Assembly (NCBI GenBank): GCA_030426445.1
Contig: JAUHYS010000001.1
Coordinates: 1 to 29,326, forward strand
Origin: a bacterium
GTDB taxonomy: Bacteria > UBA10199 > DSSB01
Direction of reading: 5' to 3'
Length of the DNA stretch: 29,326 bases
Positions within the stretch are counted from its first letter, which is position 1. The number at the start of each line of letters is the position of its first letter. Positions 3,945-22,076 of this stretch are shown here, piece by piece. The translations under genes were made by a program, and so were the position numbers. The notes beneath the pieces are model-generated. The model saw only the letters and a list, made by a program, of their open reading frames with translations. It was not told the DNA's origin and ran no database searches.

Positions 3945-4565
3945 TTATTTTTTATTTTTATTAAATTTCATATGAGTCCCAAATAACATATCCCAAAAAG
4001 GATTGGTGACACCAAAACATTTTTTAGGCTGTTTGAAATGATGAGCCAGGTGATATTTACGTAAATATTTATACATGGGCTGATGAGTCTTAAAATGATG
4101 GGCCCCATAGTGTAGCCACTCGTAGTAAGTGTAGCCAACTGTCAACCCTGACATCATCAAGGCACCGGCACTCCAACTTTGTGTCACCGCAAAAAAAACT
4201 AAATAAAGCACCGAAGAAAGGAGTAAGCTAACGGTTAAGGGAGAAAAAATCAGATACTTATCATCGGTATCTCGATGATGTGCTAAGTGCAACATCGAAA
4301 CCATAGATTTAAAAGGCTCCCTACGAGTGTTCCAATGGTACACAAAACGGTGCAATACATACTCAATAAAAGTCCAAGCAATAATACCTAACAGAACAAA
4401 AACTATCATTCCTAGTACACTGTGATTTCCCCACAACCAGGCAAGGTAAAAAAGAGCCATCGCAACAGGTGCAAAAGCCACCGTAGGATGCCAAGGGCTC
4501 GACATCTTAAAAAAAATCTTACCCGAGAACGAAGGGCCTGTTTTTAAGCCTATTTTTTCTATCAT
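3945..4565 (-). CDS. Sterol desaturase / fatty acid hydroxylase family enzyme, FA2H/Scs7-like, without a cytochrome b5 domain (paralog 1)
   Basis: WTFIEYVLHRFVYH, HLAHH, YEWLHYGAHH, HLAHHF..FGVTNPFWDMLFGT. Confidence 0.9.
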   Translation of the reverse strand: MIEKIGLKTGPSFSGKIFFKMSSPWHPTVAFAPVAMALFYLAWLWGNHSVLGMIVFVLLGIIAWTFIEYVLHRFVYHWNTRREPFKSMVSMLHLAHHRDTDDKYLIFSPLTVSLLLSSVLYLVFFAVTQSWSAGALMMSGLTVGYTYYEWLHYGAHHFKTHQPMYKYLRKYHLAHHFKQPKKCFGVTNPFWDMLFGTHMKFNKNKK

Positions 4566-4587
4566 ATAAATCGGTCTCCCTTTTAAG

Positions 4588-4601
4588 TAACCACATGGTT
4601 A
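4588..4601. promoter_or_regulatory. Candidate TetR operator TAACCA-CA-TGGTTA
   Basis: Perfect 6-2-6 palindrome abutting the -10 of the hydroxylase promoter, in the intergenic region divergent from the tetR gene. Confidence 0.6.
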
Positions 4602-4630
4602 TTATAATAAAAAACAATTAATTTTGTCAA
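4601..4630 (-). promoter_or_regulatory. Sigma70 promoter for the hydroxylase pair
   Basis: Minus strand TTGACA (4630-4625), 18 nt spacer, TATAAT (4606-4601). Confidence 0.7.
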
Positions 4631-4700
4631 TAGCTGAAATAAACAACTGCGCCTAAATAAAAAGTTTCCAGACTAAACCAAATAATGTTATTAGATATAC

Positions 4701-5369
4701 ATGAAAACAAAAAAAAATCAAAATACTGAAAAAAAACCTCAAAAAAGAGATGCTCAAAAAACCCGTGCTAAAATCCTCAGTTGCGCAACCGAATGCTTTT
4801 CTGGCTCGGGATATGAAGGAACATCCTTAAAAGATATTTTAGATAAAGCAAAAGTCAATAAACGCATGGTTTATCACTACTATGGCAGTAAAGAAAGTCT
4901 CTACCGGTCAGTGCACCTCCACCAATGGAAAATGCTGAACGAGTGGCTAACGCAAAGACTATTAAAAACTCAGTTAGAAAGTAATACGGTTTGGACTGCA
5001 AAAACATTACTACTGAAATCAACTGAAATTTTTCATGATTTTTGCGCGAGTCATCAAGAGTTTATCCGCCTTTTATTATGGGATGGTTTAGAGGGAGGCG
5101 CTGTTTCTCGAAGTATTTGGGAAGAAGGTCGGGCCCCCTTATATGAACAAATAGTCAGTTTAGTAAAAGGGGTACAATCTAAAGGACTAAAATTAGGAGA
5201 AATCCAGGCAGACCACCTTGTGGTGAGCTTTTTAGGTTCCATGCTGTTTTACTTTGCTTATGCAAATAGTCTCAGCGATATTTTTGGAAATGACCCTCTT
5301 GACAAGAATATACTTGAAACCCGTAAAGATCAAATACTGAAGCAATTAAATAAGATTCTTACTTCATAA
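4701..5369 (+). CDS. TetR/AcrR family transcriptional regulator
   Basis: N-terminal HTH: ILSCATECFSGSGYEGTSLKDILDKAKVNKRMVYHYYGSKESLY. Confidence 0.93.
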   Translation: MKTKKNQNTEKKPQKRDAQKTRAKILSCATECFSGSGYEGTSLKDILDKAKVNKRMVYHYYGSKESLYRSVHLHQWKMLNEWLTQRLLKTQLESNTVWTAKTLLLKSTEIFHDFCASHQEFIRLLLWDGLEGGAVSRSIWEEGRAPLYEQIVSLVKGVQSKGLKLGEIQADHLVVSFLGSMLFYFAYANSLSDIFGNDPLDKNILETRKDQILKQLNKILTS

Positions 5370-5408
5370 AAAAAAGCCAGAGTGATACTCTGGCATTTCT
5401 ATTTTTTT
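5368..5408. terminator. Intrinsic terminator between convergent tetR and PPIase genes, probably bidirectional
   Basis: GCCAGAGT-GAT-ACTCTGGC stem at 5376-5394, an A8 tract on the left (U-tract for the minus strand) and a T-rich tract on the right. Confidence 0.75.
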
Positions 5409-5427
5409 TAATCAAAAAATACTTTAT

Positions 5428-5483
5428 TAAACTTCTTTCCTAACCGTAGGAGCAGGTTCTAAGCCTGCCCCTACAAATTCATT
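5428..5483. repeat. GTAG-family REP element, collapsed single-hairpin form
   Basis: GTAG-GAGCAGGTTCTAAGCCTGCCC-CTAC at 5446-5474. Its flanks match those of the 27137-27238 copy (17/18 nt left, 9/9 nt right). Confidence 0.8.
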
Positions 5484-5545
5484 CTTTTAAAAAATCATTG
5501 CGTTATATCAAATCAAAGAACAGCTTAGGAAATAAGTCTATTCAC

Positions 5546-6589
5546 TTAATGAGCACTTTTAGCCTTACTCGCGGGCTCTTTTTTAGCATCTGTTTTGGCT
5601 TTAATGTCTAGTTTTGGCTTAGGCTGAGTTGTTCTGACTTGAATTGGTGAGTTACCTTTAGGAGCCACTTTACTGTCAGCTTTCTCACTTAATTTTTTAA
5701 GATCTTCGTCTTCATAAACAGTTTCTTTGCTATCTATCAGACTTGTCATGAGTTCCTTTTGAATCTCTGACCGCAAAGTCATTTTGATTTCTTCTTCAAC
5801 TTCTTCAAAACTAGCTACTTTAGGAGCCTCTAAAACTTTAATAATATGATAACCTTGGCGGGTTTTAATGGGATCGCTGATTTCCCCTACTTTGAGACTA
5901 AAGGCCTTATCTACTAGATCTTCCATCTGCAGGGGTTTCACTCGACGGTCCTCTTTACCGATCAAGCCAAAATCACCGCCTTTTTTCTTAGTTCGCACAT
6001 CATCTGAATATTCCTTCACAATGTCTTCCCATTTACTGCCTGCATCTAGTTTCTGTTTGGCTTCCTTTGCCTTAACAAGCGCTGCCGCTTCTAAAGCACT
6101 TTGGTCTTGTTTTGGATTTTTATCTCCAGGCTTAGCCCTTTGGGGTCGAACTAATATGTGTGCTAAATGAACTTTATTATATTTTTTTTCTTTATTCTTT
6201 TCATAATCCGCTTTAGCTTGTTTTTCGATTTCCTCCATCATCAAGGCCTGAATAAAAGTGCGGCGATTATTTAGGATCACTCGGTTCTGGTATTTATCCA
6301 TTTCAGTGATTCCTCGCTTCACGCTTTCTTTATATAAAATCTCCTGAGTCAACAAACCATCAACAAGTTGCTTTTTACTTGCTGGATCATTGAGGCGCTC
6401 TTTAATCTTGGGTTCAAAGCTAGCAATATAATCTAAATAACCTTGATGTATGGAAACACCATTTTTTGTAGCTAATTTCTTTCCCGAATTAATCTTAGCT
6501 TCAAAGGCAGATTCCGAAGCACTTCCACCACCACAACTAGCCAAAAATAAAAGACCGAGTAAACTGACACTTAATATTTTGTTCTTCAT
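5546..6589 (-). CDS. PpiC/parvulin-type peptidyl-prolyl isomerase lipoprotein (PrsA/SurA-like)
   Basis: Lipobox FLAS-C, HLAHILV, YSDD..TKKKGGDFG, ISDPIKTRQGYHIIKV. A GGAGGAG RBS supports ATG 6589 rather than 6622. Confidence 0.9.
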   Translation of the reverse strand: MKNKILSVSLLGLLFLASCGGGSASESAFEAKINSGKKLATKNGVSIHQGYLDYIASFEPKIKERLNDPASKKQLVDGLLTQEILYKESVKRGITEMDKYQNRVILNNRRTFIQALMMEEIEKQAKADYEKNKEKKYNKVHLAHILVRPQRAKPGDKNPKQDQSALEAAALVKAKEAKQKLDAGSKWEDIVKEYSDDVRTKKKGGDFGLIGKEDRRVKPLQMEDLVDKAFSLKVGEISDPIKTRQGYHIIKVLEAPKVASFEEVEEEIKMTLRSEIQKELMTSLIDSKETVYEDEDLKKLSEKADSKVAPKGNSPIQVRTTQPKPKLDIKAKTDAKKEPASKAKSAH

Positions 6590-6646
6590 AAAAACTCCTC
6601 CACAAAACTGATAGAACTTCATGGATACAAAAATTTTAAAATTAAT

Positions 6647-6680
6647 TTCTAAAACTTAAATAAATTTTTAAGTTTTAGAA
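6647..6680. repeat. Perfect 14-bp inverted repeat in the PPIase/pgpA divergent intergenic region
   Basis: TTCTAAAACTTAAA, 6 nt spacer, TTTAAGTTTTAGAA. Confidence 0.7.
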
Positions 6681-6807
6681 TATAAATAAAAATATGAGCT
6701 ATTTTTTGTAAATACTTTTATAAGTAAAAGTCAGCTTTCGTCAATTCTTTCCTACTTTTATTTAAAAAAGAAAGTTGATGCCTTTCACGGACTGAGTTAT
6801 CCCAAGC

Positions 6808-7263
6808 ATGATGAATAAGCTCTCACTTATTTTAGCTTCTGGGTTTGGAGTCGGATACTCTCCTTGGGCAAGTGGTACCTTTGGAAGTCTTTGGGGTATC
6901 TTGTTTTTTTACTGGTGGCGAAATTTAAGTCCATTATATTTTTCTCTCTCTCTTATAGCATTCTTCATAATTTCCATGCCGATTGTTCAGTCTGCTGAAA
7001 AACAACTTGGCACCCATGACAGTGGAGTCATTATCCTAGATGAAATATTGGGATACTTAGTGGCAGTTTGGGCAATGCCCTTTAATTTTTGGACAGTCGC
7101 GATTGGTTTTGGACTTTTCCGGCTTTTTGATATCTGGAAACCCTTTCCTATCTCCTATTTAGATAAAAAAATAAAAGGAGCTTTGGGTGTCATTGTTGAC
7201 GATCTTGCAGCAGGAATTTTCGCTCATGTTATCTTAAGAGGGCTTTATCTGGTCTTCTTTTAA
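6808..7263 (+). CDS. pgpA: Phosphatidylglycerophosphatase A
   Basis: GFGVGYSPWASGTFGS, DSGVIILDE, FRLFDIWKPFPI, GVIVDDLAAG. Confidence 0.95.
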   Translation: MMNKLSLILASGFGVGYSPWASGTFGSLWGILFFYWWRNLSPLYFSLSLIAFFIISMPIVQSAEKQLGTHDSGVIILDEILGYLVAVWAMPFNFWTVAIGFGLFRLFDIWKPFPISYLDKKIKGALGVIVDDLAAGIFAHVILRGLYLVFF

Positions 7264-7305
7264 GACCTCTCTAACTTGTAAAAAAAGAAAGTAAATCACA
7301 TTAAT

Positions 7306-8562
7306 ATGCGAGCAGAAATCATCAGTATTGGAAATGAAGTAGTTGACGGTTCTGTCATCAACACAAACGCCAGCTGGCTATCCGAACAACTAAGTTCATT
7401 AGGCGTTCAAGTGTGCTTTCACTCTGCTGTACCTGACGACGAATCCCTAATATTGGATGTTCTGCAAAGGGCTCAGCAGCGCGCTCAACTTATCTTAATA
7501 ACAGGAGGCTTAGGGCCTACGGTCGATGATTTTACTATAGAAGTGGCTGCGAAATTTTTTAACAAGCCTCTAGTCATGGATTCAACGAGTCTAAAAAAAA
7601 TTCATGATTTTTTTGAAAAACTGGGCCGCAAAGCCAGTTCCAATCAAAAAAAACAAGCCCTCTTTCCTCAAGGCGCTACCGTTTTAGCCAATACAGTGGG
7701 AACAGCTCCTGGCATCTACTATCTATTTAAAGAAGTCCATTTCGCCTTTTTTCCGGGAGTCCCTTCAGAAATGAAGTCCATGTTCACTGATGAATTCTTG
7801 CCTATCTTAAAACAGGCCCCTGGCCGTAACCACGAAAGACAGCTTAAAGTCTTGCGTTGTTTTGGCATCCCTGAAGGACAAATGGATCATGAGCTCCGCA
7901 AAGAAATTAAGGGCCGCGTGGGGCTACTCCAGACTCAACTGGGTTTTCGGGTACGTTTCCCTTATATTGATGTACGGCTTTACAACTATGAAAGTGACCC
8001 TAAGAAAGCCGAAACCCAGCTCGAATCTTCTGCTCAGGTGATTCGCAATCATCTAAAAAATTATATTATTAGTGAAAGAGACGAGTTTCTTCCTAAAATT
8101 GTAGGCGATTTGCTGATATCAAAAAATAAAACGTTGGCCTGTGCAGAATCGTGCACTGGGGGGCTGATTGCGAACCTAATAACGGATGTTCCAGGAGCCA
8201 GTGCTTACTTTATAGAAGGTCTGGTCACTTATGCCAACCAAGCCAAAATCGATCTGCTGAAGGTCGACCCCCAAATAATAGAACAACAGGGTGCAGTTAG
8301 TGAACCCGTTGCTTTGATCATGGCTCAAGAGGTCCGTAGACGTGCAAAATCCGATTTTGGCATCGCAACCACTGGAATTGCCGGCCCTAGTGGAGGCACC
8401 CAAGAAAAACCTGTAGGTACAGTCTATATTGCTGTCGTGGATGAAAAACAACAATGGGTCAAAAAATTTCGTTTTCCTTTTGGCAGAGAGCGTTTCAAAC
8501 AGGTTGTGGCTGCAACCGCTTTAGACCGACTGCGAAGAAATTTACTGAGCTTTTCTGACTAA
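7306..8562 (+). CDS. cinA: Competence/damage-inducible protein A (MoCF-like N-terminus plus PncC nicotinamide mononucleotide deamidase domain)
   Basis: IISIGNEVVDGSVINTNA, ITGGLGPTVDD, PGVPSEM, ACAESCTGG, TGIAGPSGG..KPVGTVYI. Confidence 0.95.
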   Translation: MRAEIISIGNEVVDGSVINTNASWLSEQLSSLGVQVCFHSAVPDDESLILDVLQRAQQRAQLILITGGLGPTVDDFTIEVAAKFFNKPLVMDSTSLKKIHDFFEKLGRKASSNQKKQALFPQGATVLANTVGTAPGIYYLFKEVHFAFFPGVPSEMKSMFTDEFLPILKQAPGRNHERQLKVLRCFGIPEGQMDHELRKEIKGRVGLLQTQLGFRVRFPYIDVRLYNYESDPKKAETQLESSAQVIRNHLKNYIISERDEFLPKIVGDLLISKNKTLACAESCTGGLIANLITDVPGASAYFIEGLVTYANQAKIDLLKVDPQIIEQQGAVSEPVALIMAQEVRRRAKSDFGIATTGIAGPSGGTQEKPVGTVYIAVVDEKQQWVKKFRFPFGRERFKQVVAATALDRLRRNLLSFSD

Positions 8563-14886: not shown

Positions 14887-16437
14887 TTAATTAATTCTAA
14901 AGTTAAGATTCGCTCTTATTTGTGGTGTTTCTATTTGTGCTAATTGTAGTTTTTGACTTAAGTCCCAATTAACTGCCTGCCAACGGGTAAATTGATCTAA
15001 AACCCAAATACCCGATTGCCTTGATCCATTACCGGATTTTCCGTTACCACCAAAAGGTAAGTGGGCTTCTGCTCCGGTAGTAGAGTTATTAATACTCGTC
15101 ATTCCAGAGCTAATCTTTTCTTTCCAGTGATAAATATAAAATGTATTTTGAGTGTAAATTGCTGAAGAAAGCCCATAACCCGTTCCGTTTGCTAAATGAA
15201 TTGCTTGCTCAAAATCTTGACAGGTCATCACATTAAATAAAGGTCCAAAAGTTTCTGTTGAATAAATTTCATCTCCAGGCTTGACTTGATCCACCACAGT
15301 AGGGTGGCAAAAATAACCCGCTTCGGGAGATCTTTTTCCTACCCAATGTGGCCAAGGATTTTCTTTACTCATTCTGCCTTGAGTTAGTACACGGTGGTGT
15401 TTTTTAACAAGTTTCTCTAAGTTAGACAAATGGTCACTCATAAACTTTTCACTCATCATAGGGCCATACATAACTTGCTTATTCATTGGGTCGCCGATTT
15501 TAATCTGAGCAATTTTTTTCAAAAGCTTGTCCAGAAATGGCTTTTTAATCTTTTTATGTAGAATCAAATTACCTAAAGAAGTACAACGTTGCCCTGCTGT
15601 ACCTAAACCTGACCAAAGTGCTCCTTCGACAGCCAGATCAAGGTTTGCATCCTCCATCACCACTAAAGGATTTTTTCCACCTAGCTCTAAACAAGCGCTT
15701 ATTAAATGGCGGCCACAAATTTCACCAATACGACGTCCCACTTCAGTGGAACCGGTAAAACCAAATTTGTCGATACCCCCCTCCTCAATCGCTTCTACTA
15801 ACCATTGTCCTGTAGAGCCTGCCCCTCCTCCAAATAACACTTGAAAGACACCTTCTGGACAACCTGCAGCATGAAGCAATTTAGCAAAATAATAAGAAGT
15901 TAACGGAGCATCTTCTGGTGCTTTCCAGAGGCAAACGTTCCCACAAACTAAAGCTGGGACAAAATACCAAGAAGGCACTGCAACAGGAAAATTCCCTGCT
16001 GTGATACAAGCAAACACCCCAACGGGGCGGCGGTAAGTACTGAGTTCTTTTTGTGGCATTTCGGAAGGTACCGTCATACCATATAGCCTGCGTCCTTCAC
16101 TCGCAAAGAACTGGCAAGTATCGATGGCTTCTTGTACGTCACCCAAAGCTTCCTTGAGAGGTTTACCCATCTCACTTGTCATGATTCTGGAGAGTTCTGT
16201 CTTATTTTGTCTGAGTAATTCTCCAAAATGGGCAATCATGTTTGCTCTAACTGGCGCAGGAGTTTGTTTCCAGGAAAGATAACTTTTTTGGGCTTTCTGA
16301 ATAGCTTCGCGGATCTGCAGTGGAGTCGCTGCAGCAAAACTCCTAAGCTCTTTTTGAAAGTTTGCAGGATTTTTTGAGATAAAAATGTTTGAACTGGTTT
16401 TTTCCTTTTTGCCGCATACCCAAGAGAGAGCTTGCAT
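14887..16437 (-). CDS. NAD(P)-dependent aldehyde dehydrogenase
   Basis: ITAGNFP, FTGSTEVG, LELGGKNP, GQRCTS (catalytic Cys), ETFGP, PFGG. Confidence 0.93.
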   Translation of the reverse strand: MQALSWVCGKKEKTSSNIFISKNPANFQKELRSFAAATPLQIREAIQKAQKSYLSWKQTPAPVRANMIAHFGELLRQNKTELSRIMTSEMGKPLKEALGDVQEAIDTCQFFASEGRRLYGMTVPSEMPQKELSTYRRPVGVFACITAGNFPVAVPSWYFVPALVCGNVCLWKAPEDAPLTSYYFAKLLHAAGCPEGVFQVLFGGGAGSTGQWLVEAIEEGGIDKFGFTGSTEVGRRIGEICGRHLISACLELGGKNPLVVMEDANLDLAVEGALWSGLGTAGQRCTSLGNLILHKKIKKPFLDKLLKKIAQIKIGDPMNKQVMYGPMMSEKFMSDHLSNLEKLVKKHHRVLTQGRMSKENPWPHWVGKRSPEAGYFCHPTVVDQVKPGDEIYSTETFGPLFNVMTCQDFEQAIHLANGTGYGLSSAIYTQNTFYIYHWKEKISSGMTSINNSTTGAEAHLPFGGNGKSGNGSRQSGIWVLDQFTRWQAVNWDLSQKLQLAQIETPQIRANLNFRIN

Positions 16438-16634
16438 ATTTTAGACCTCCTCAGAATTCCTTTAAAGTTTAACAACAAGTTTAACTTAACTTTCCAATAT
16501 TTTGGAGGATTTTAATTCTAATCTCTAAAAAAGCTATAGCGAATAGGGTAAAAAAAGAGTATTCTAAGAATAATCAGGGCATAAATAAATATGATCTCCC
16601 CAAATAGAAGGTTCCGGGCAGACAATGTTCCGCA

Positions 16635-18002
16635 TTAAGGGACGGCAGAGTAAATAAAAGGCATGATCCATTTTTTATGGTGAAAGCCCCGCTTTTCTTG
16701 GGCTAAATCGACAGAAGGGTCAACAAGCTTTTGATTTAAGCGCCCATTAAGAGAAGTATTTGCATCCGCATATACTTGAACTTGGTTCACACCTCTTGCT
16801 GTAAAATCTTGAGCAATATGGTGAGCCATCTGCAAAATCATATCCGGTTGAGTCGACATTTGCTTTTGTTGATAAGGCAGGAGATATTGATTGGGATTGA
16901 CTAACCAGCGCTTCCCAGTACTGGGTTCGACCACTCTAAAATCAATGCTACCATTTTTTTCCATGAGCATAACACGCCAGGAAAAACGAAAGCCTTCTTC
17001 ACCCCACATCACATTTCCCGGATAAAAATAATGTCTTAAAGGCAAGAAAATTTGTAGCGCAAAATACATTCCTAAAAATCCATACAACATATTTGTTTTT
17101 TTGGAGACCACAGTTTGTAAAACATGAGGGGGCTGATCTGAAATTAAAGATCGCGAAGTTTTACTCAATTTTTTATAAAGCTTTTCTGGCCAATCGCTTG
17201 CAAAAAATAAAGTAGTGCTGACAATCATTATCCAAGGAAACATCCCAATACGAAAAAGCTTCCAGGTAAAAATATGAAAAACAATAACCACTAAATAAGC
17301 AAAGGGTCTAAGACGACGATGCAGTAAAAAAAAGGGGACTGTCAAATCAAAAAAAGCCCCTATCCAACTCATCGCATAGGCTAACCAAGCTTGATTAAAC
17401 CACCCTCCAATAACAGGGAAGTCAACATTCATGGAAAGCCAGGTACGCAATGGCTGGGCATGAAAGAACCAATCCGAATTAAGTTTGGCAACTCCTGCAA
17501 AAAAATAAACTAAACCTATTTGTAACCTTAATGTATAAAGAGGCCAAGCAGGAATTTTTGAAGCGTATAGTTTTGGATTTCTCCAAGCATCCAAAGACCA
17601 CTTACAATGCAAAGGCATCAAAATCATCAAACCTGAAATGAGAGAGATAAAATAATAATGATTGAGGTAATTTGATTTATCGATGAGCTCAACGTAGGTA
17701 AAACCTAAGAAGAAAAATAGCATGCTCAGACGGTAATAAAAACCTAATGCAATGAAAATAGCCAGAATAAAGAGAAGAATAAAATGAGCGTACATTCCCC
17801 AATCTGGCCAGGGTTTGACCCAATCAAAACCATAAAAAGTAAAAAAGAATTTGGGGCGAATATAAAGATCGTAAACCCAGCCTTTTAGCATAAATCTCAT
17901 CATGCTAAAAGCCATCATCAATCCAAAAAAAATACGGAATACAGCTAAGGAACTGACATTAATGGGTTGGGAAAGAAATTTCTTAATCGCCGTCATTATC
18001 AC
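16635..18002 (-). CDS. HTTM-domain, vitamin K-dependent gamma-carboxylase-like membrane protein
   Basis: SLAVFRIFFG, DKSNYLNHYY, WSLD, LRLQIGLVYFFAGVAKLNSDW, IGMFPWIM, FSWRVM, PDMILQMAH and SLNGR...VDPSVDL, collinear with my recollection of GGCX. The start (GTG 18002 or ATG 17996) overlaps the upstream imelysin stop. Confidence 0.9.
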   Translation of the reverse strand: MIMTAIKKFLSQPINVSSLAVFRIFFGLMMAFSMMRFMLKGWVYDLYIRPKFFFTFYGFDWVKPWPDWGMYAHFILLFILAIFIALGFYYRLSMLFFFLGFTYVELIDKSNYLNHYYFISLISGLMILMPLHCKWSLDAWRNPKLYASKIPAWPLYTLRLQIGLVYFFAGVAKLNSDWFFHAQPLRTWLSMNVDFPVIGGWFNQAWLAYAMSWIGAFFDLTVPFFLLHRRLRPFAYLVVIVFHIFTWKLFRIGMFPWIMIVSTTLFFASDWPEKLYKKLSKTSRSLISDQPPHVLQTVVSKKTNMLYGFLGMYFALQIFLPLRHYFYPGNVMWGEEGFRFSWRVMLMEKNGSIDFRVVEPSTGKRWLVNPNQYLLPYQQKQMSTQPDMILQMAHHIAQDFTARGVNQVQVYADANTSLNGRLNQKLVDPSVDLAQEKRGFHHKKWIMPFIYSAVP

Positions 18003-19173
18003 TAAACTTAGTGGTCACTCCCAGCAAACTTGCTAATGGACCATAAAGATAATCACGAAGTGTTTTTATTTTTTCATAAGCCGTTTCTACGCTAGCGGGA
18101 TTTTGTGTGAGGGCACCATGTAAAGAGCCCGGAATCGCTTCGGTCGCTGTGATCGCATCGACAATAAGTTGATCTAATACTTCAGAGGCATTGGCATTTT
18201 TGTCTTTGACTAAGTCTTTCAAGCCTAGACCCTGATTAGACACATAAGTACCGCGATATAAACTTTGCATTCCTTTGAGCTCTGTCAAAATACTTTCTTT
18301 AGAATAATGTGCATAGGGACTTTCGACTGTCTCGGGTAAAGGTGTTTCGCTGCCTGATTTAAGCCCCATAGGCCGCGCAAGTTTCATGTCCCGAATAAAA
18401 TCGACACTAAAGGCCCACTCATTTACCACCATATTAATCGCGTCGTGTAAGGTCGCAAAGCTACTTCCACTTTGTCCGGCTGTATATAATTGCTCGGCAT
18501 AGTTAGACCCATTTACTGTCCAGGCAAGGTGCAGGGCCGCACTTTGTTCTTGTAAGACATTGCCTACAGCGGTTAGAAAGTTGCAGCGGCGAACTGCATT
18601 TTCGTTTTGAGTATAGTTATCCAGTATTTTTTGAGAATCGCCTTCACTATCAAATAATAAATACTCAATAGCTGGAAGTCCGCGAGTGCTAACGCCTCCT
18701 TCAATCCCCGCAAGGATTTCTGGGGTAAATTCTTCATAAGTTGCAATAGCCGCTTCAATAAAATCGGGTTCGCTTGGCCAAAAATGGATTTCATTATCAA
18801 AGCTCTCCATTTGATAAGGCCCAAAGCCAAAGCTCTCAGTCGCGGTAAGTTTCCCTTGAGTGTTTTGCCACTTTGTCTGAGCTGTATTGAGTTTGCCTAA
18901 ATCAGGATCCTCACAAAAAATCAGCAAACTTGTTTGTAGCTCTGTAGCAGCCGTACTTAAATTTGCATAACTGGGAATAATCACGTTTTCGCTGAGCTCT
19001 TTGAGCATTTGATTTTGATCTAAACTACCGGATGGAGTTGGGTCTCCGCCTCCAGATCCAGAGCTACCACAAGCAAGATAAAGCACAGGAAATAAACTGA
19101 TCAAAGCGATAAGCAGTGTTTTCTTGAATCGAAGTTTTTTAATCTGAAAATCGAATTTAGAAACAAACATCAA
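17983..19173 (-). CDS. Imelysin-family (peptidase M75-like) lipoprotein, second copy
   Basis: Lipobox LYLA-C, IIPSY..L, FGP....I.FWP, RGLPAIEYLL, C-terminal LGVT..FSDNDGD. Confidence 0.88.
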   Translation of the reverse strand: MMFVSKFDFQIKKLRFKKTLLIALISLFPVLYLACGSSGSGGGDPTPSGSLDQNQMLKELSENVIIPSYANLSTAATELQTSLLIFCEDPDLGKLNTAQTKWQNTQGKLTATESFGFGPYQMESFDNEIHFWPSEPDFIEAAIATYEEFTPEILAGIEGGVSTRGLPAIEYLLFDSEGDSQKILDNYTQNENAVRRCNFLTAVGNVLQEQSAALHLAWTVNGSNYAEQLYTAGQSGSSFATLHDAINMVVNEWAFSVDFIRDMKLARPMGLKSGSETPLPETVESPYAHYSKESILTELKGMQSLYRGTYVSNQGLGLKDLVKDKNANASEVLDQLIVDAITATEAIPGSLHGALTQNPASVETAYEKIKTLRDYLYGPLASLLGVTTKFSDNDGD

Positions 19174-19196
19174 GGTTCCTTTCTTTTTTTAAAAAT

Positions 19197-20648
19197 CTAA
19201 AGTGAAGACAAAAATTTTAATAATGCTTCTCTTTCTGCTTTATTTAAATGACGAAATTTTTCTTTTGCCACCTCTGCCTCTCCACCATGCCATAAAATAG
19301 CTTCTGCAAAACCTCGAGCGCGTCCGTCATGTAAAAGATGATTATGGCCATTGACTGTTTCAATGAGCCCAATCCCCCATAAAGGTGGGGTTCTCCATTC
19401 GCTTCCATTGGCTTCAAAATCTGGACGATTATCGGCTAATGCTGGTCCCATATCATGTAACAGCAGATCGGTATAAGGTCGAATCGTTTGTCCTGCCAAT
19501 TGTGGAATGGAATATTCTGTTGCGGTAATATGTTGCGGAGTGTGGCATTGCGTACAACCGATATTTTTAAATAACACTTTTCCATCTAAAACTTGGGAGT
19601 CTTCCCAGTTTCTGCGTGCTGGTACCGCAAGGGTCTGACTGTAAAAAGTCACCAGATCAAAAACGTCTTCTTGCAGCTCTGGATTGCCTCCATTGGGTGC
19701 ATCCAAACAGTCTGTTTGAGTAGCCGGGCAATTTTCCTCAGAAAAGAGACTCGAAGTAATCCCAACATCTCCTAAAAAAGCCCCCGCAACTTGTTGACGA
19801 ACATTGGGCTGGTTGGCTTTCCAGCCAAATCGACCAACTTGATGAGTTTGTGAAAGTTCATCCCAAACATAATTGAGACGCCCCGAAATTCCATCGCCAT
19901 TGTCGTCATTAGGATCCGACAGAGCTAATAAAGTTTCTTCGGGAATGGCTTCCAAAAGCCCCATACCAATCATTTGTGGAGCAATACGCGGAGAAACCAT
20001 AATCTCGGAATCAAGTTCTCCAAAATTGAGATTATTAATATGATAAGTGGGTTGACGGAGACTATAAGCTTCACCATCAGCATAGCTTCCAGGAATTTCC
20101 TCGTAAGTCACTGCAATAGAGGCTTCTGGCATGACATCTAAAATAGCACGGTTTTGAATCTGGTCCCCATAATTTGGGTCAGGTAGGGGTTCTCCATGCA
20201 CGGATTCACCAGGGATACTGATTCGCAAAAGTAAAGCAATGGGTTCCTCTTCTGAGTTAAGAGGCGCTGCACCCCGCCCGTCTTTAGCATGACAAGAAGC
20301 ACAGCTATTGGCATTGAAGGTAGGGCCTAAACCGTCTCTAGCCATTGTACTGGCAGGTGCCGTTACCCAGTCCTGTTCAAAAAAGGAGTTCCCCAGTTTA
20401 AAATCGGATTGCTGTGCCAAAGTTAAGTTTTTAGCAAACTTTGAAAAGGCCTCGTTGGTATTAATAAAGACCGTAGTGTCTCCGCCTGAAAGCTCTTCTC
20501 CTACTTCAACACGTGGGTCTATACTAGGATTAGGCTCCGGAAACTCTTCTGAACCTCCGCAAGAATGAAGAACTACACCTATGAAACCTAGTAGAGAAAA
20601 GTAAAAGGACCTGGCTAACCAGGTCCGATGAAAGTACTTTAGAAACAT
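19197..20648 (-). CDS. Di-heme oxidoreductase (DHOR; di-heme cytochrome c) lipoprotein
   Basis: Two heme-binding motifs (CASCH, CTQCH), DGLGPTFNA, GRFGWKA, YTDLLLHDMG, WRTPPLWG, LHDGRAR, EAILWHGGEA. Lipobox VLHS-C. Confidence 0.93.
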   Translation of the reverse strand: MFLKYFHRTWLARSFYFSLLGFIGVVLHSCGGSEEFPEPNPSIDPRVEVGEELSGGDTTVFINTNEAFSKFAKNLTLAQQSDFKLGNSFFEQDWVTAPASTMARDGLGPTFNANSCASCHAKDGRGAAPLNSEEEPIALLLRISIPGESVHGEPLPDPNYGDQIQNRAILDVMPEASIAVTYEEIPGSYADGEAYSLRQPTYHINNLNFGELDSEIMVSPRIAPQMIGMGLLEAIPEETLLALSDPNDDNGDGISGRLNYVWDELSQTHQVGRFGWKANQPNVRQQVAGAFLGDVGITSSLFSEENCPATQTDCLDAPNGGNPELQEDVFDLVTFYSQTLAVPARRNWEDSQVLDGKVLFKNIGCTQCHTPQHITATEYSIPQLAGQTIRPYTDLLLHDMGPALADNRPDFEANGSEWRTPPLWGIGLIETVNGHNHLLHDGRARGFAEAILWHGGEAEVAKEKFRHLNKAEREALLKFLSSL

Positions 20649-20657
20649 AAAAATTTC

Positions 20658-21887
20658 TTATTCAGCAGGAGCTAAGTTAATATTGATTCCAAGGGTTGTG
20701 GCCGCTTCAGGAAGTAGATCACCAAAAGCAACTAAGGCATCAATGGCTGCTTGGATATTGGCTCGTGATTCATCTTCTAAAATCTGTTGATCAAAAGGCA
20801 TGCCATTTTTAGTCATTTGATCAATAGTATTGATCGCAGTTTCGGCTTTTTGTAGTTCTGCTAACATTTTAGCATTCAGGTCAGAAGCACTTATAGCGAA
20901 AAGATCTTTTAACCCTTTGCCTTGAACCTTTGTAGCATCGAGTCTAAGGTATTCACCTAAATAGACATTTTTGATCCCTTGAAAATTAGTCACAATATCA
21001 CGGTGTGTGTTATCGCTAAAACAGGAATGCTCGTCTTCTTGATCTTTTTTAAGTAAAGCGACTTCCATGCGCTCACCAGAAAGTTCAGAACGAGCTAGTG
21101 ACCCAATACCGACGATGATGCGACGGATTGCTTCATCACTGTTAAGTGCTAAGAAGCTCTCGCGATAATTTCCCGAAGTTTCGTCTCCCCAGGCTTCGGT
21201 CACAGCACCTAAGTCCTCTATGAGTAAACTTGAAACTACGTTTAGATAAGTTCCACGACGCTCTTGATTTGCAGCGGTCCCCTCATTTCCTGATACATAA
21301 TCCGTGTAAGGACGCAGCCCTGCATCTTCGGGATTTTCATTGAGGTCTTGTCCCCAAAGTAAAAACTCTATGGCATGATAACCCGTTGTCACAGCATCTT
21401 CAGCATCTTGCGTATTTAATCCTGTTAGAGTTTCTGCATTGATTTCGATATCCAGGTTATTAATAATCCCCGCTGTTTCATCTAAGTTTACATAATCAAT
21501 TGTTGCTTCATCTAAGGGCCAAGCATTGAGCTGCCCTTCGGGTCCTGTATTTGGGTCATCGATGGGGCCATCATAAAAACGGTAGGCCTCCGTCTGACCA
21601 TAAGGTTCTCGGGAATTTAACCAGGCCGTTTTTGCAGCTGCAAAGTTTGCTTGTGTAGGTTCATCAACAAAGACATTCACTGCAGTTTCTAAGGCAAGGG
21701 CTGCTTGCAAGGAGTCCTCATAACTTGCTAATACGATATCAGCATAATTGGCAACGACTTGTTGTTTAAGTTGAGGAAGTTCATTTCCACTGCCATCTGG
21801 GGACACTGTATCACTACTTGAGCAGGCGTTCAGAGCACCCACGGATAAAAGAATTAACGACCACTTTTTTATACTTGTCATATTCAT
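20658..21887 (-). CDS. Imelysin-family iron-regulated lipoprotein (IcmP/LruB/IrpA-like)
   Basis: Lipobox ALNA-C, AW..SREPYGQTEAYRF, LNAWPLDE..IDY, TGYHAIEFLLWGQD, EDEHSCFSDNT. Confidence 0.92.
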   Translation of the reverse strand: MNMTSIKKWSLILLSVGALNACSSSDTVSPDGSGNELPQLKQQVVANYADIVLASYEDSLQAALALETAVNVFVDEPTQANFAAAKTAWLNSREPYGQTEAYRFYDGPIDDPNTGPEGQLNAWPLDEATIDYVNLDETAGIINNLDIEINAETLTGLNTQDAEDAVTTGYHAIEFLLWGQDLNENPEDAGLRPYTDYVSGNEGTAANQERRGTYLNVVSSLLIEDLGAVTEAWGDETSGNYRESFLALNSDEAIRRIIVGIGSLARSELSGERMEVALLKKDQEDEHSCFSDNTHRDIVTNFQGIKNVYLGEYLRLDATKVQGKGLKDLFAISASDLNAKMLAELQKAETAINTIDQMTKNGMPFDQQILEDESRANIQAAIDALVAFGDLLPEAATTLGININLAPAE

Positions 21888-21951: not shown

Positions 21952-21970
21952 ATTGAAAGTTAATTTCAAT
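21952..21970. promoter_or_regulatory. Fur-like box 1
   Basis: 19-bp ATTGAAA-GTTAA-TTTCAAT, 65 bp upstream of the imelysin start. Confidence 0.7.
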
Positions 21971-22057
21971 TGAATTAATAACAAAAAAAATAATTAATTA
22001 ATTAATAATATATTTTTGTCAATAAAATTTTCAATTAGAATGCTTAACTTAATCTTT

Positions 22058-22076
22058 ATTGAAAAATACTTTCAAT
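22058..22076. promoter_or_regulatory. Fur-like box 2
   Basis: 19-bp ATTGAAA-AATAC-TTTCAAT, with the same CTTT left flank and T right flank as box 1. Confidence 0.7.

Follow-up and report, generated by a model that had tools for sequence, protein, structure and literature searches.

An imelysin operon ending in a vitamin K carboxylase-like membrane protein, a candidate maturation enzyme for an aspartate-rich imelysin tail

The window analyzed in this study is a 29,326-nt stretch of DNA from a bacterium (GTDB lineage Bacteria; UBA10199; DSSB01), comprising positions 1 to 29,326 of the forward strand of contig JAUHYS010000001.1 (GenBank assembly GCA_030426445.1). We focus on four consecutive minus-strand genes at 16635-21887, which encode two imelysins, a di-haem protein and a homologue of the human vitamin K carboxylase GGCX. 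The first gene codes for imelysin A (20658-21887, 409 aa; Pfam PF09375, Peptidase_M75/imelysin, 1.4e-73) and is followed by that of a DHOR (DUF1111) protein, a di-haem cytochrome c, putative peroxidase and probable lipoprotein (19197-20648, 483 aa; PF06537, 1.1e-109). Next come the genes of imelysin B, an IPPA-type imelysin lipoprotein (17983-19173, 396 aa; PF09375, 6.6e-43), and of the HTTM/GGCX-like protein (16635-18002, 455 aa; HTTM PF05090, 2.1e-84, and VKGC_lumenal_dom PF22777, 7e-56), referred to below as HTTM. In this order the genes are separated by gaps of 9 and 23 nt and, between the last two, overlap by 20 nt. An original prediction, made from the sequence of the window alone, had described four tightly packed genes of these families; the coordinates of the open reading frames and the Pfam matches bear out both statements. 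Domain annotation of the four genes also agrees with its view that the unit holds no permease, TonB-dependent receptor or DUF1513 gene, and we found no integral membrane protein in the unit other than HTTM.

Imelysin A carries the canonical GxHxxE motif (as GYHAIE) and DHOR has two CxxCH motifs, CASCH and CTQCH. In imelysin B the corresponding motif is GxPxxE (GLPAIE), with Pro in place of His, the same His loss as in the crystallized IPPA; profile comparison matched the imelysin B family to IPPA (3pf0) end to end, up to the last residue. A Cys following the signal peptide is invariant in the imelysin B family and, as Cys22, in 22 orthologues of imelysin A, and is present in nearly all orthologues of DHOR. 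Owing to this conservation, the proposal that the first three proteins are lipoproteins is plausible, even if their lipoboxes are not canonical.

HTTM keeps the domain order of the GGCX/VKGC family, PF05090 followed by PF22777, and its residues 9-452 align with residues 54-508 of human GGCX (E 9e-45). The alignment stops at human residue 508 and HTTM ends three residues later, so that human residues 509-758 have no equivalent. The AlphaFold2 model of HTTM (predicted local distance difference test, pLDDT, 92.5) matched the cryo-electron microscopy structures of human GGCX in a Foldseek search, with a template modelling (TM) score of 0.86 and 27% identity, and no fold besides GGCX was returned for it. 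Six residues, N114, H115, K173, W178, D219 and F255, correspond to human N159, H160, K218, W223, D263 and F299 and are invariant in 67 HTTM orthologues sharing only 45-55% identity with the protein of the window. In human GGCX, Lys218 acts as the base and Asp263 forms a network for quinol deprotonation, Trp223 is also among the catalytic residues, the Asn159-His160 pair holds the substrate carboxylate and Phe299 stacks on and traps CO2, according to the 2025 structure paper (PMC12647623). Judged from alignment and model, HTTM represents a pared-down GGCX fold in which all residues by which the human enzyme deprotonates the quinol, holds the substrate carboxylate and traps CO2 are retained, and the earlier assignment of HTTM as GGCX-like is supported by Pfam, fold and catalytic residues alike. 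As the genome contains two MqnA/MqnD-family genes, belonging to the futalosine route to menaquinone, together with a VKOR fragment at a contig end, a naphthoquinol cofactor for HTTM is plausible.

Other proteins of the HTTM-plus-lumenal type occur in the same phylum. One paralogue (L088, G035:C5) follows a fatty-acyl reductase/acyltransferase fusion and an epimerase, and a shortened one of 346 aa (L090, G069:C2) follows secDF; the assumption that all GGCX-like genes are linked to imelysins was rejected, since such paralogues sit in other contexts. An exact look-up of the window's HTTM protein in public contigs returned no record, and the same was true of the protein P0051.

Every imelysin adjacent to HTTM ends in [FY]xDxDGD, with three further residues in Dehalococcoidia. 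In the window the tail reads FSDNDGD and is encoded at 17986-18006 on the minus strand, where its codons overlap the start codon of HTTM. The bases 17986-18006 are thereby shared by the DNDGD codons and the first codons of HTTM, and therefore two conserved features constrain the same bases. D394, G395 and D396 are invariant in 67 imelysin B sequences that otherwise show about 32% identical columns, and all 57 true imelysin B homologues obtained in a search of 5.8 billion proteins share the tail ending. The DGD tail is absent from the imelysin A proteins and from the imelysins of two-gene imelysin-DHOR loci. Among four genomes with such a tail-less imelysin, three have no HTTM-lumenal gene and the fourth gave a weak match only. 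The tail is rich in Asp and contains no Glu. In the AlphaFold2 monomer of imelysin B (pLDDT 90) residues 391-396 average 58, and the equivalent residues of the IPPA crystal are disordered. We also came across a 700-aa fusion of a fatty-acid hydroxylase domain (PF04116) with an imelysin domain (P0062), which has no DGD tail.

A survey of the gene neighborhoods of HTTM proteins, proposed along with the original prediction, revealed strong co-occurrence with imelysins. We fetched 80 loci encoding the closest relatives of HTTM and clustered their open reading frames; 76 loci were informative for adjacency, and in about 71 of these imelysin B adjoins HTTM. The adjacent loci belong to Bacteroidota, Balneolaceae, Rhodothermaceae, Chloroflexota, Acidobacteriota and the window's own phylum, and fall mainly into two arrangements. 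About 48 loci, from Bacteroidota, Balneolaceae and Rhodothermaceae, have the order DUF4856 - imelysin - HTTM - TonB receptor. About 25 show the order of the window, imelysin - DHOR - imelysin - HTTM, and come from its own small phylum, Acidobacteriota and Chloroflexota. In most loci of Dehalococcoidia and other Chloroflexota, HTTM is convergent with the triplet and still adjacent to it, while in three it is co-directional; in two loci (L043 and L080) the two modules are found next to each other. The conserved core is one imelysin, imelysin B, together with HTTM. No biosynthetic genes accompany this pair in either conserved arrangement. Its culturable carriers include Riemerella, Fulvivirga and Pontibacter. 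The idea that DUF4856 might be a hidden imelysin was discarded, as profile-profile comparisons gave probabilities of 15% and 44% and aligned only the signal peptide or a short stretch.

The link of HTTM with DHOR is looser, and here the expected co-occurrence held only in part. Among 93 species genomes of the window's phylum, 15 have an HTTM-lumenal gene, and each of the nine genuine DHOR genes has an HTTM gene at a distance of 2-3 kb. In a sample of 251 genomes from another phylum, on the other hand, HTTM is a neighbor in only 4 of the 13 full-length DHOR loci, and for this reason we rejected HTTM as a part of every DHOR locus. Conversely, three genomes with the imelysin-HTTM pair have no DHOR. 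Given both observations, DHOR and HTTM are frequent neighbors, neither of which depends on the other. In one genome (G362) the DHOR triplet includes a tailed imelysin B but has no HTTM gene beside it; a solitary, high-scoring HTTM gene is retained 1.75 Mb away.

Co-folding of HTTM with imelysin B had also been suggested, and was performed with HTTM and mature imelysin B in three runs, with three controls and paired alignments of our own making. The three runs gave an interaction prediction score from aligned errors (ipSAE) of 0.82, against 0.01 for the best control. In calibration, 58 of 80 solved complexes attained this value, as did 2 of 110 mismatched pairs, a comparison that is only rough given the self-made alignments. 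The predicted interface comprises about 140 contacts. On the HTTM side its confident part includes residues 113-116 (with N114 and H115), 250-255 (with F255), 344-352, 364-369 and 415-423, and on the imelysin B side residues 232-276 and 373-396, with the last four residues, 393-396, among them. The co-fold thus supports binding between the two predicted structures.

The upstream region of the operon, 340 nt long, contains two exact copies of the palindrome ATTGAAA-N5-TTTCAAT, a distal one at 22058-22076 and a proximal one at 21952-21970, the latter located 65 nt 5′ of the imelysin A start codon. Between them, and upstream of the proximal copy, lies a promoter-like site at 22007-22034 on the minus strand (-35 TTGAAA, 16 nt, -10 TATATT; 10 of 12 positions matched in a consensus scan), whose -35 element overlaps a third ATTGAAA half-site. 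Promoter-like sites are no more frequent in this region than in shuffled sequences, so the site marks a position only and is no functional evidence. The exact 19-bp palindrome has four copies in the 2.2-Mb genome vs. about 0.045 expected and none in 20 shuffles. A copy with one mismatch is located 17 nt upstream of the fur-feoA-feoB operon, and intergenic copies with two mismatches precede two TonB-dependent receptor genes. Because of its rarity in the genome, the near-copy before fur-feoAB and the weaker copies before the receptor genes, the palindrome is most likely a Fur box, as the original prediction of Fur-like boxes had it. Its distribution is, in silico, convincingly the pattern expected of an autoregulated Fur regulon. 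In two further assemblies of the phylum (L003 and L013), the orthologous operon is likewise preceded by the identical exact palindrome. Judged from these sites, the operon probably responds to iron through Fur.

Experimental support for iron/Fur control exists only for a relative, Riemerella anatipestifer, in which RAYM_09779-09794 (a TonB receptor, a "vitamin K-dependent gamma-carboxylase", an imelysin lipoprotein and a hypothetical protein) were tabulated as Fur-regulated under iron restriction (PMC5609570); of these genes only that of the receptor was taken up in the discussion of that paper. As to expression in the environment, the stretch was detected in two DNA metagenome runs only, one of them from a biofloc metagenome, and no RNA run matched. 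The remaining two exact palindromes of the genome, at 7737 and 7822 on contig C270, precede a minus-strand operon at 4233-7840. Its products, secreted proteins of no assigned family, are three of 77, 441 and 183 aa with no Pfam match and one of 456 aa with a thrombospondin type 3 (calcium-binding) repeat, and it may be a second, undescribed iron-regulated envelope system.

Taking these data together, we tentatively favor a reading in which HTTM acts on the tail of imelysin B as a maturation enzyme, probably by menaquinol-dependent carboxylation of Asp. The genes would then form a Fur-repressed envelope operon. HTTM would be an inner-membrane protein whose "lumenal" domain faces the periplasm, as homology with GGCX suggests, and would bind imelysin B there after Sec export. 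Using menaquinol, O2 and CO2 or bicarbonate, it would carboxylate at least one Asp of the tail, a beta-carboxylation analogous to Gla formation that would create a malonate-like metal chelator. Once matured, imelysin B would take part in iron acquisition together with imelysin A and the di-haem DHOR; its partners in Bacteroidota would be DUF4856 and a TonB receptor. HTTM would act on its client in transit, as GGCX does in the endoplasmic reticulum, and would not be a permease. Such a role fits the invariant carboxylase residues. It also fits the Bacteroidota cassette, whose receptor resides in the outer membrane and whose two lipoproteins may be associated with that membrane too, and the persistence of the pair where both genes are unlinked, as in G362. 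A precedent is MloH, an HTTM-family carboxylase of malonomycin biosynthesis in Streptomyces, which carboxylates an aspartyl group according to the account cited in PMC12647623. That the HTTM clade as a whole consists of true protein carboxylases, with the DxDGD tail as natural substrate and Asp beta-carboxylation giving a Gla-like claw for iron acquisition, goes a step further and appears possible but rather doubtful.

Two roles had originally been offered for HTTM. The modification of imelysins is the better supported one, with its target narrowed from Glu of the acidic imelysins in general to the Asp-rich tail of imelysin B. The other, a link from the menaquinol pool to DHOR, is unlikely as a general role because of the three pair-carrying genomes with no DHOR.

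Several observations weigh against carboxylation of the tail. The residues that hold Glu and Gla for processive carboxylation in human GGCX are altered in HTTM: human Y395 is replaced by F338 (Tyr in 53 of the 67 orthologues), H404 by Met (Met in 49, otherwise Thr, Val or Ile), R406 by K349 (Lys in all) and H440 by Q385 (Gln in 64). The propeptide-binding and C-terminal region of human GGCX (~495-758) is absent. Recycling of a menaquinone epoxide is left unexplained, since most bacterial VKOR homologues lack epoxide reductase activity (PMC4555120). The placement of the tail in the catalytic pocket of HTTM is inferred from two lists of interface residues, not from residue pairs, and a predictor aware of GGCX-peptide complexes may favor an acidic peptide at this site. 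The Leptospira GGCX orthologue reportedly has epoxidase and no carboxylase activity. Finally, IPPA itself ends in a DGD tail, and in one gene context (P0061) DUF1513, not HTTM, follows a tailed imelysin B. As the tail is shared by IPPA and a DUF1513-type operon, it is not specific to HTTM systems and may be a general docking peptide. The P0061 operon has the order hemP - ABM monooxygenase - imelysin - multicopper oxidase - DHOR - imelysin B - DUF1513; its multicopper oxidase is a pointer to redox chemistry of iron or copper in this system.

These last points lend themselves to an explanation in which HTTM is a redox partner, oxidizing menaquinol with no carboxylation and passing the reducing power to iron on imelysin B. 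Possible acceptors are Fe(III), held in the pocket by the DxDGD tail as a chelator, and the di-haem DHOR, and electrons from the membrane would enter an Efe-like iron redox cycle through HTTM. The tail also occurs in DUF1513-type operons, in which a carboxylase is ruled out as the fourth protein; this suggests that the fourth component has a single role in both cases, and not a modifying one. One of these operons encodes the multicopper oxidase as well. HTTM is also the only membrane protein of the unit, menaquinone-pathway genes are present in the organism and the co-fold is equally compatible with a stable complex. We nevertheless consider redox partnership rather unlikely. DHOR cannot be the general acceptor, being missing from three genomes with the pair; the CO2-stacking Phe and the substrate-carboxylate Asn-His pair are invariant, which a simple quinol oxidase would not need; and no metal or haem site is evident in HTTM.

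It is less probable still that HTTM carboxylates or oxygenates a small molecule or lipid, e.g., a chelator, with imelysin B receiving, presenting or sensing the product. MloH, the only characterized bacterial carboxylase of the family known to us, works in antibiotic biosynthesis, the HTTM-plus-lumenal paralogues adjoin an acyl reductase/acyltransferase gene or SecDF and not imelysins, and the human propeptide-binding region is missing from HTTM. Yet no biosynthetic genes lie beside the pair in either conserved arrangement, the large predicted interface (~140 contacts) extends to the catalytic residues, and HTTM is paired with a single type of imelysin in different phyla. Absence of any catalysis, with HTTM as a mere membrane anchor or assembly scaffold for imelysin B or with a functionally meaningless adjacency, would accord with the loss of the human processivity residues and C-terminal domain, but is very improbable in view of six catalytic residues invariant in 67 orthologues at 45-55% identity and of an adjacency kept in several phyla and two orientations.

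The proposed maturation of imelysin B by HTTM can be compared with several known systems. HTTM has the same fold as human GGCX over its whole length and the same HTTM and lumenal domains, and by homology its active site would be extracytoplasmic, where secreted clients pass. It differs in being only 455 aa long, with human 509-758 missing and Y395, H404, R406 and H440 changed. Its candidate client, imelysin B, lacks both a propeptide and a Gla domain, having just an Asp-rich tail at the C terminus, and the putative quinol would be menaquinol. MloH, as described in the cited account, is alike in being a bacterial GGCX orthologue that acts on an aspartyl and not a glutamyl group, the chemistry proposed here for the tail; it serves an antibiotic pathway and not a lipoprotein client.

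Operons of the PA4370-PA4373 type (PMC3143127) and the Leptospira LruB operon LIMLP_14170-14180 (PMC7567364) are iron-regulated and share with the window the order of a GxHxxE imelysin, a DUF1111/DHOR protein and an IPPA-type imelysin, the second imelysin having lost the His and having a C-terminal DGD tail. In contrast to the classical imelysin-DHOR-imelysin operons, the fourth gene of the window is HTTM, with DUF1513 present in one classical context (P0061); HTTM occupies the slot that DUF1513 has in the classical operons. A DUF1513 search of the window's own 83%-complete genome, of five genomes with HTTM and of 92 from the phylum gave no match, an absence that is weak, as no control genome matched either. 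The Bacteroidota cassette DUF4856 - imelysin - HTTM - TonB receptor (Riemerella RAYM_09779-09794, PMC5609570) has in common with the window the core of a tailed imelysin B and HTTM, and its iron/Fur control is matched by the control predicted for the operon of the window. The window lacks the DUF4856 lipoprotein and an adjacent CarboxypepD_reg-Plug-barrel receptor, and has imelysin A and DHOR instead.

A more distant relation is seen to the ferrous-iron system EfeUOB/EfeM. There, an M75/imelysin-fold periplasmic protein is paired with a haem enzyme in an iron-regulated operon, and the window likewise combines an imelysin-fold protein and a haem enzyme in one operon. Unlike in EfeUOB, the operon's haem protein is a DHOR, a DyP-type EfeB and a cupredoxin domain are both lacking, and no EfeU/FTR1 permease is encoded in the operon, nor was an FTR1 match obtained in the 83%-complete genome.

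To our knowledge, no protein target of the GGCX-type family has been identified in bacteria. We know of no settled role for the bacterial GGCX homologues since their discovery in Leptospira, and of one member only, in an antibiotic pathway, with an assigned reaction. Our analysis provides these homologues with a specific, widely conserved candidate partner, imelysin B, and a seven-residue tail. The results are relevant, too, to what imelysin-like proteins do biochemically in iron uptake, and they suggest a possible origin for Gla-type metal-binding chemistry. Should the clade indeed consist of protein carboxylases acting on the DxDGD tail, this would be the first case of vitamin K-type protein modification to be described from bacteria, and its ancestral role would lie in the binding of metal. 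We found no literature on imelysin together with HTTM, or on DUF4856. The text of the 2011 imelysin paper (PMC3143127) does not mention the carboxylase, and a 2026 preprint on DUF5819-HTTM concerns a different HTTM subfamily. What the present analysis adds is the genome-wide Fur-box evidence, the controlled co-fold reaching the catalytic residues and the equivalence of the DUF1513 and HTTM slots.

Pfam annotation of the flanking genes showed them to be unrelated to the operon, with an Rsm22-like methyltransferase upstream and an aldehyde dehydrogenase and a Usp protein downstream. Within the operon, an 8-bp GC-rich hairpin followed by a T-rich run is located at 20607-20626 on the minus strand, within DHOR codons 1-15 and just past imelysin A; it could reduce read-through into the distal genes or have arisen by chance. 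The aldehyde dehydrogenase gene (14887-16437, minus strand) is separated from HTTM by a 197-nt gap (16438-16634), in which no terminator was recognizable, and it may be co-transcribed with HTTM. In addition to a ribosome-binding site of its own, the gene shows a weak promoter-like match. In several Balneolaceae loci, too, an aldehyde dehydrogenase gene is found a few genes away from the cassette.

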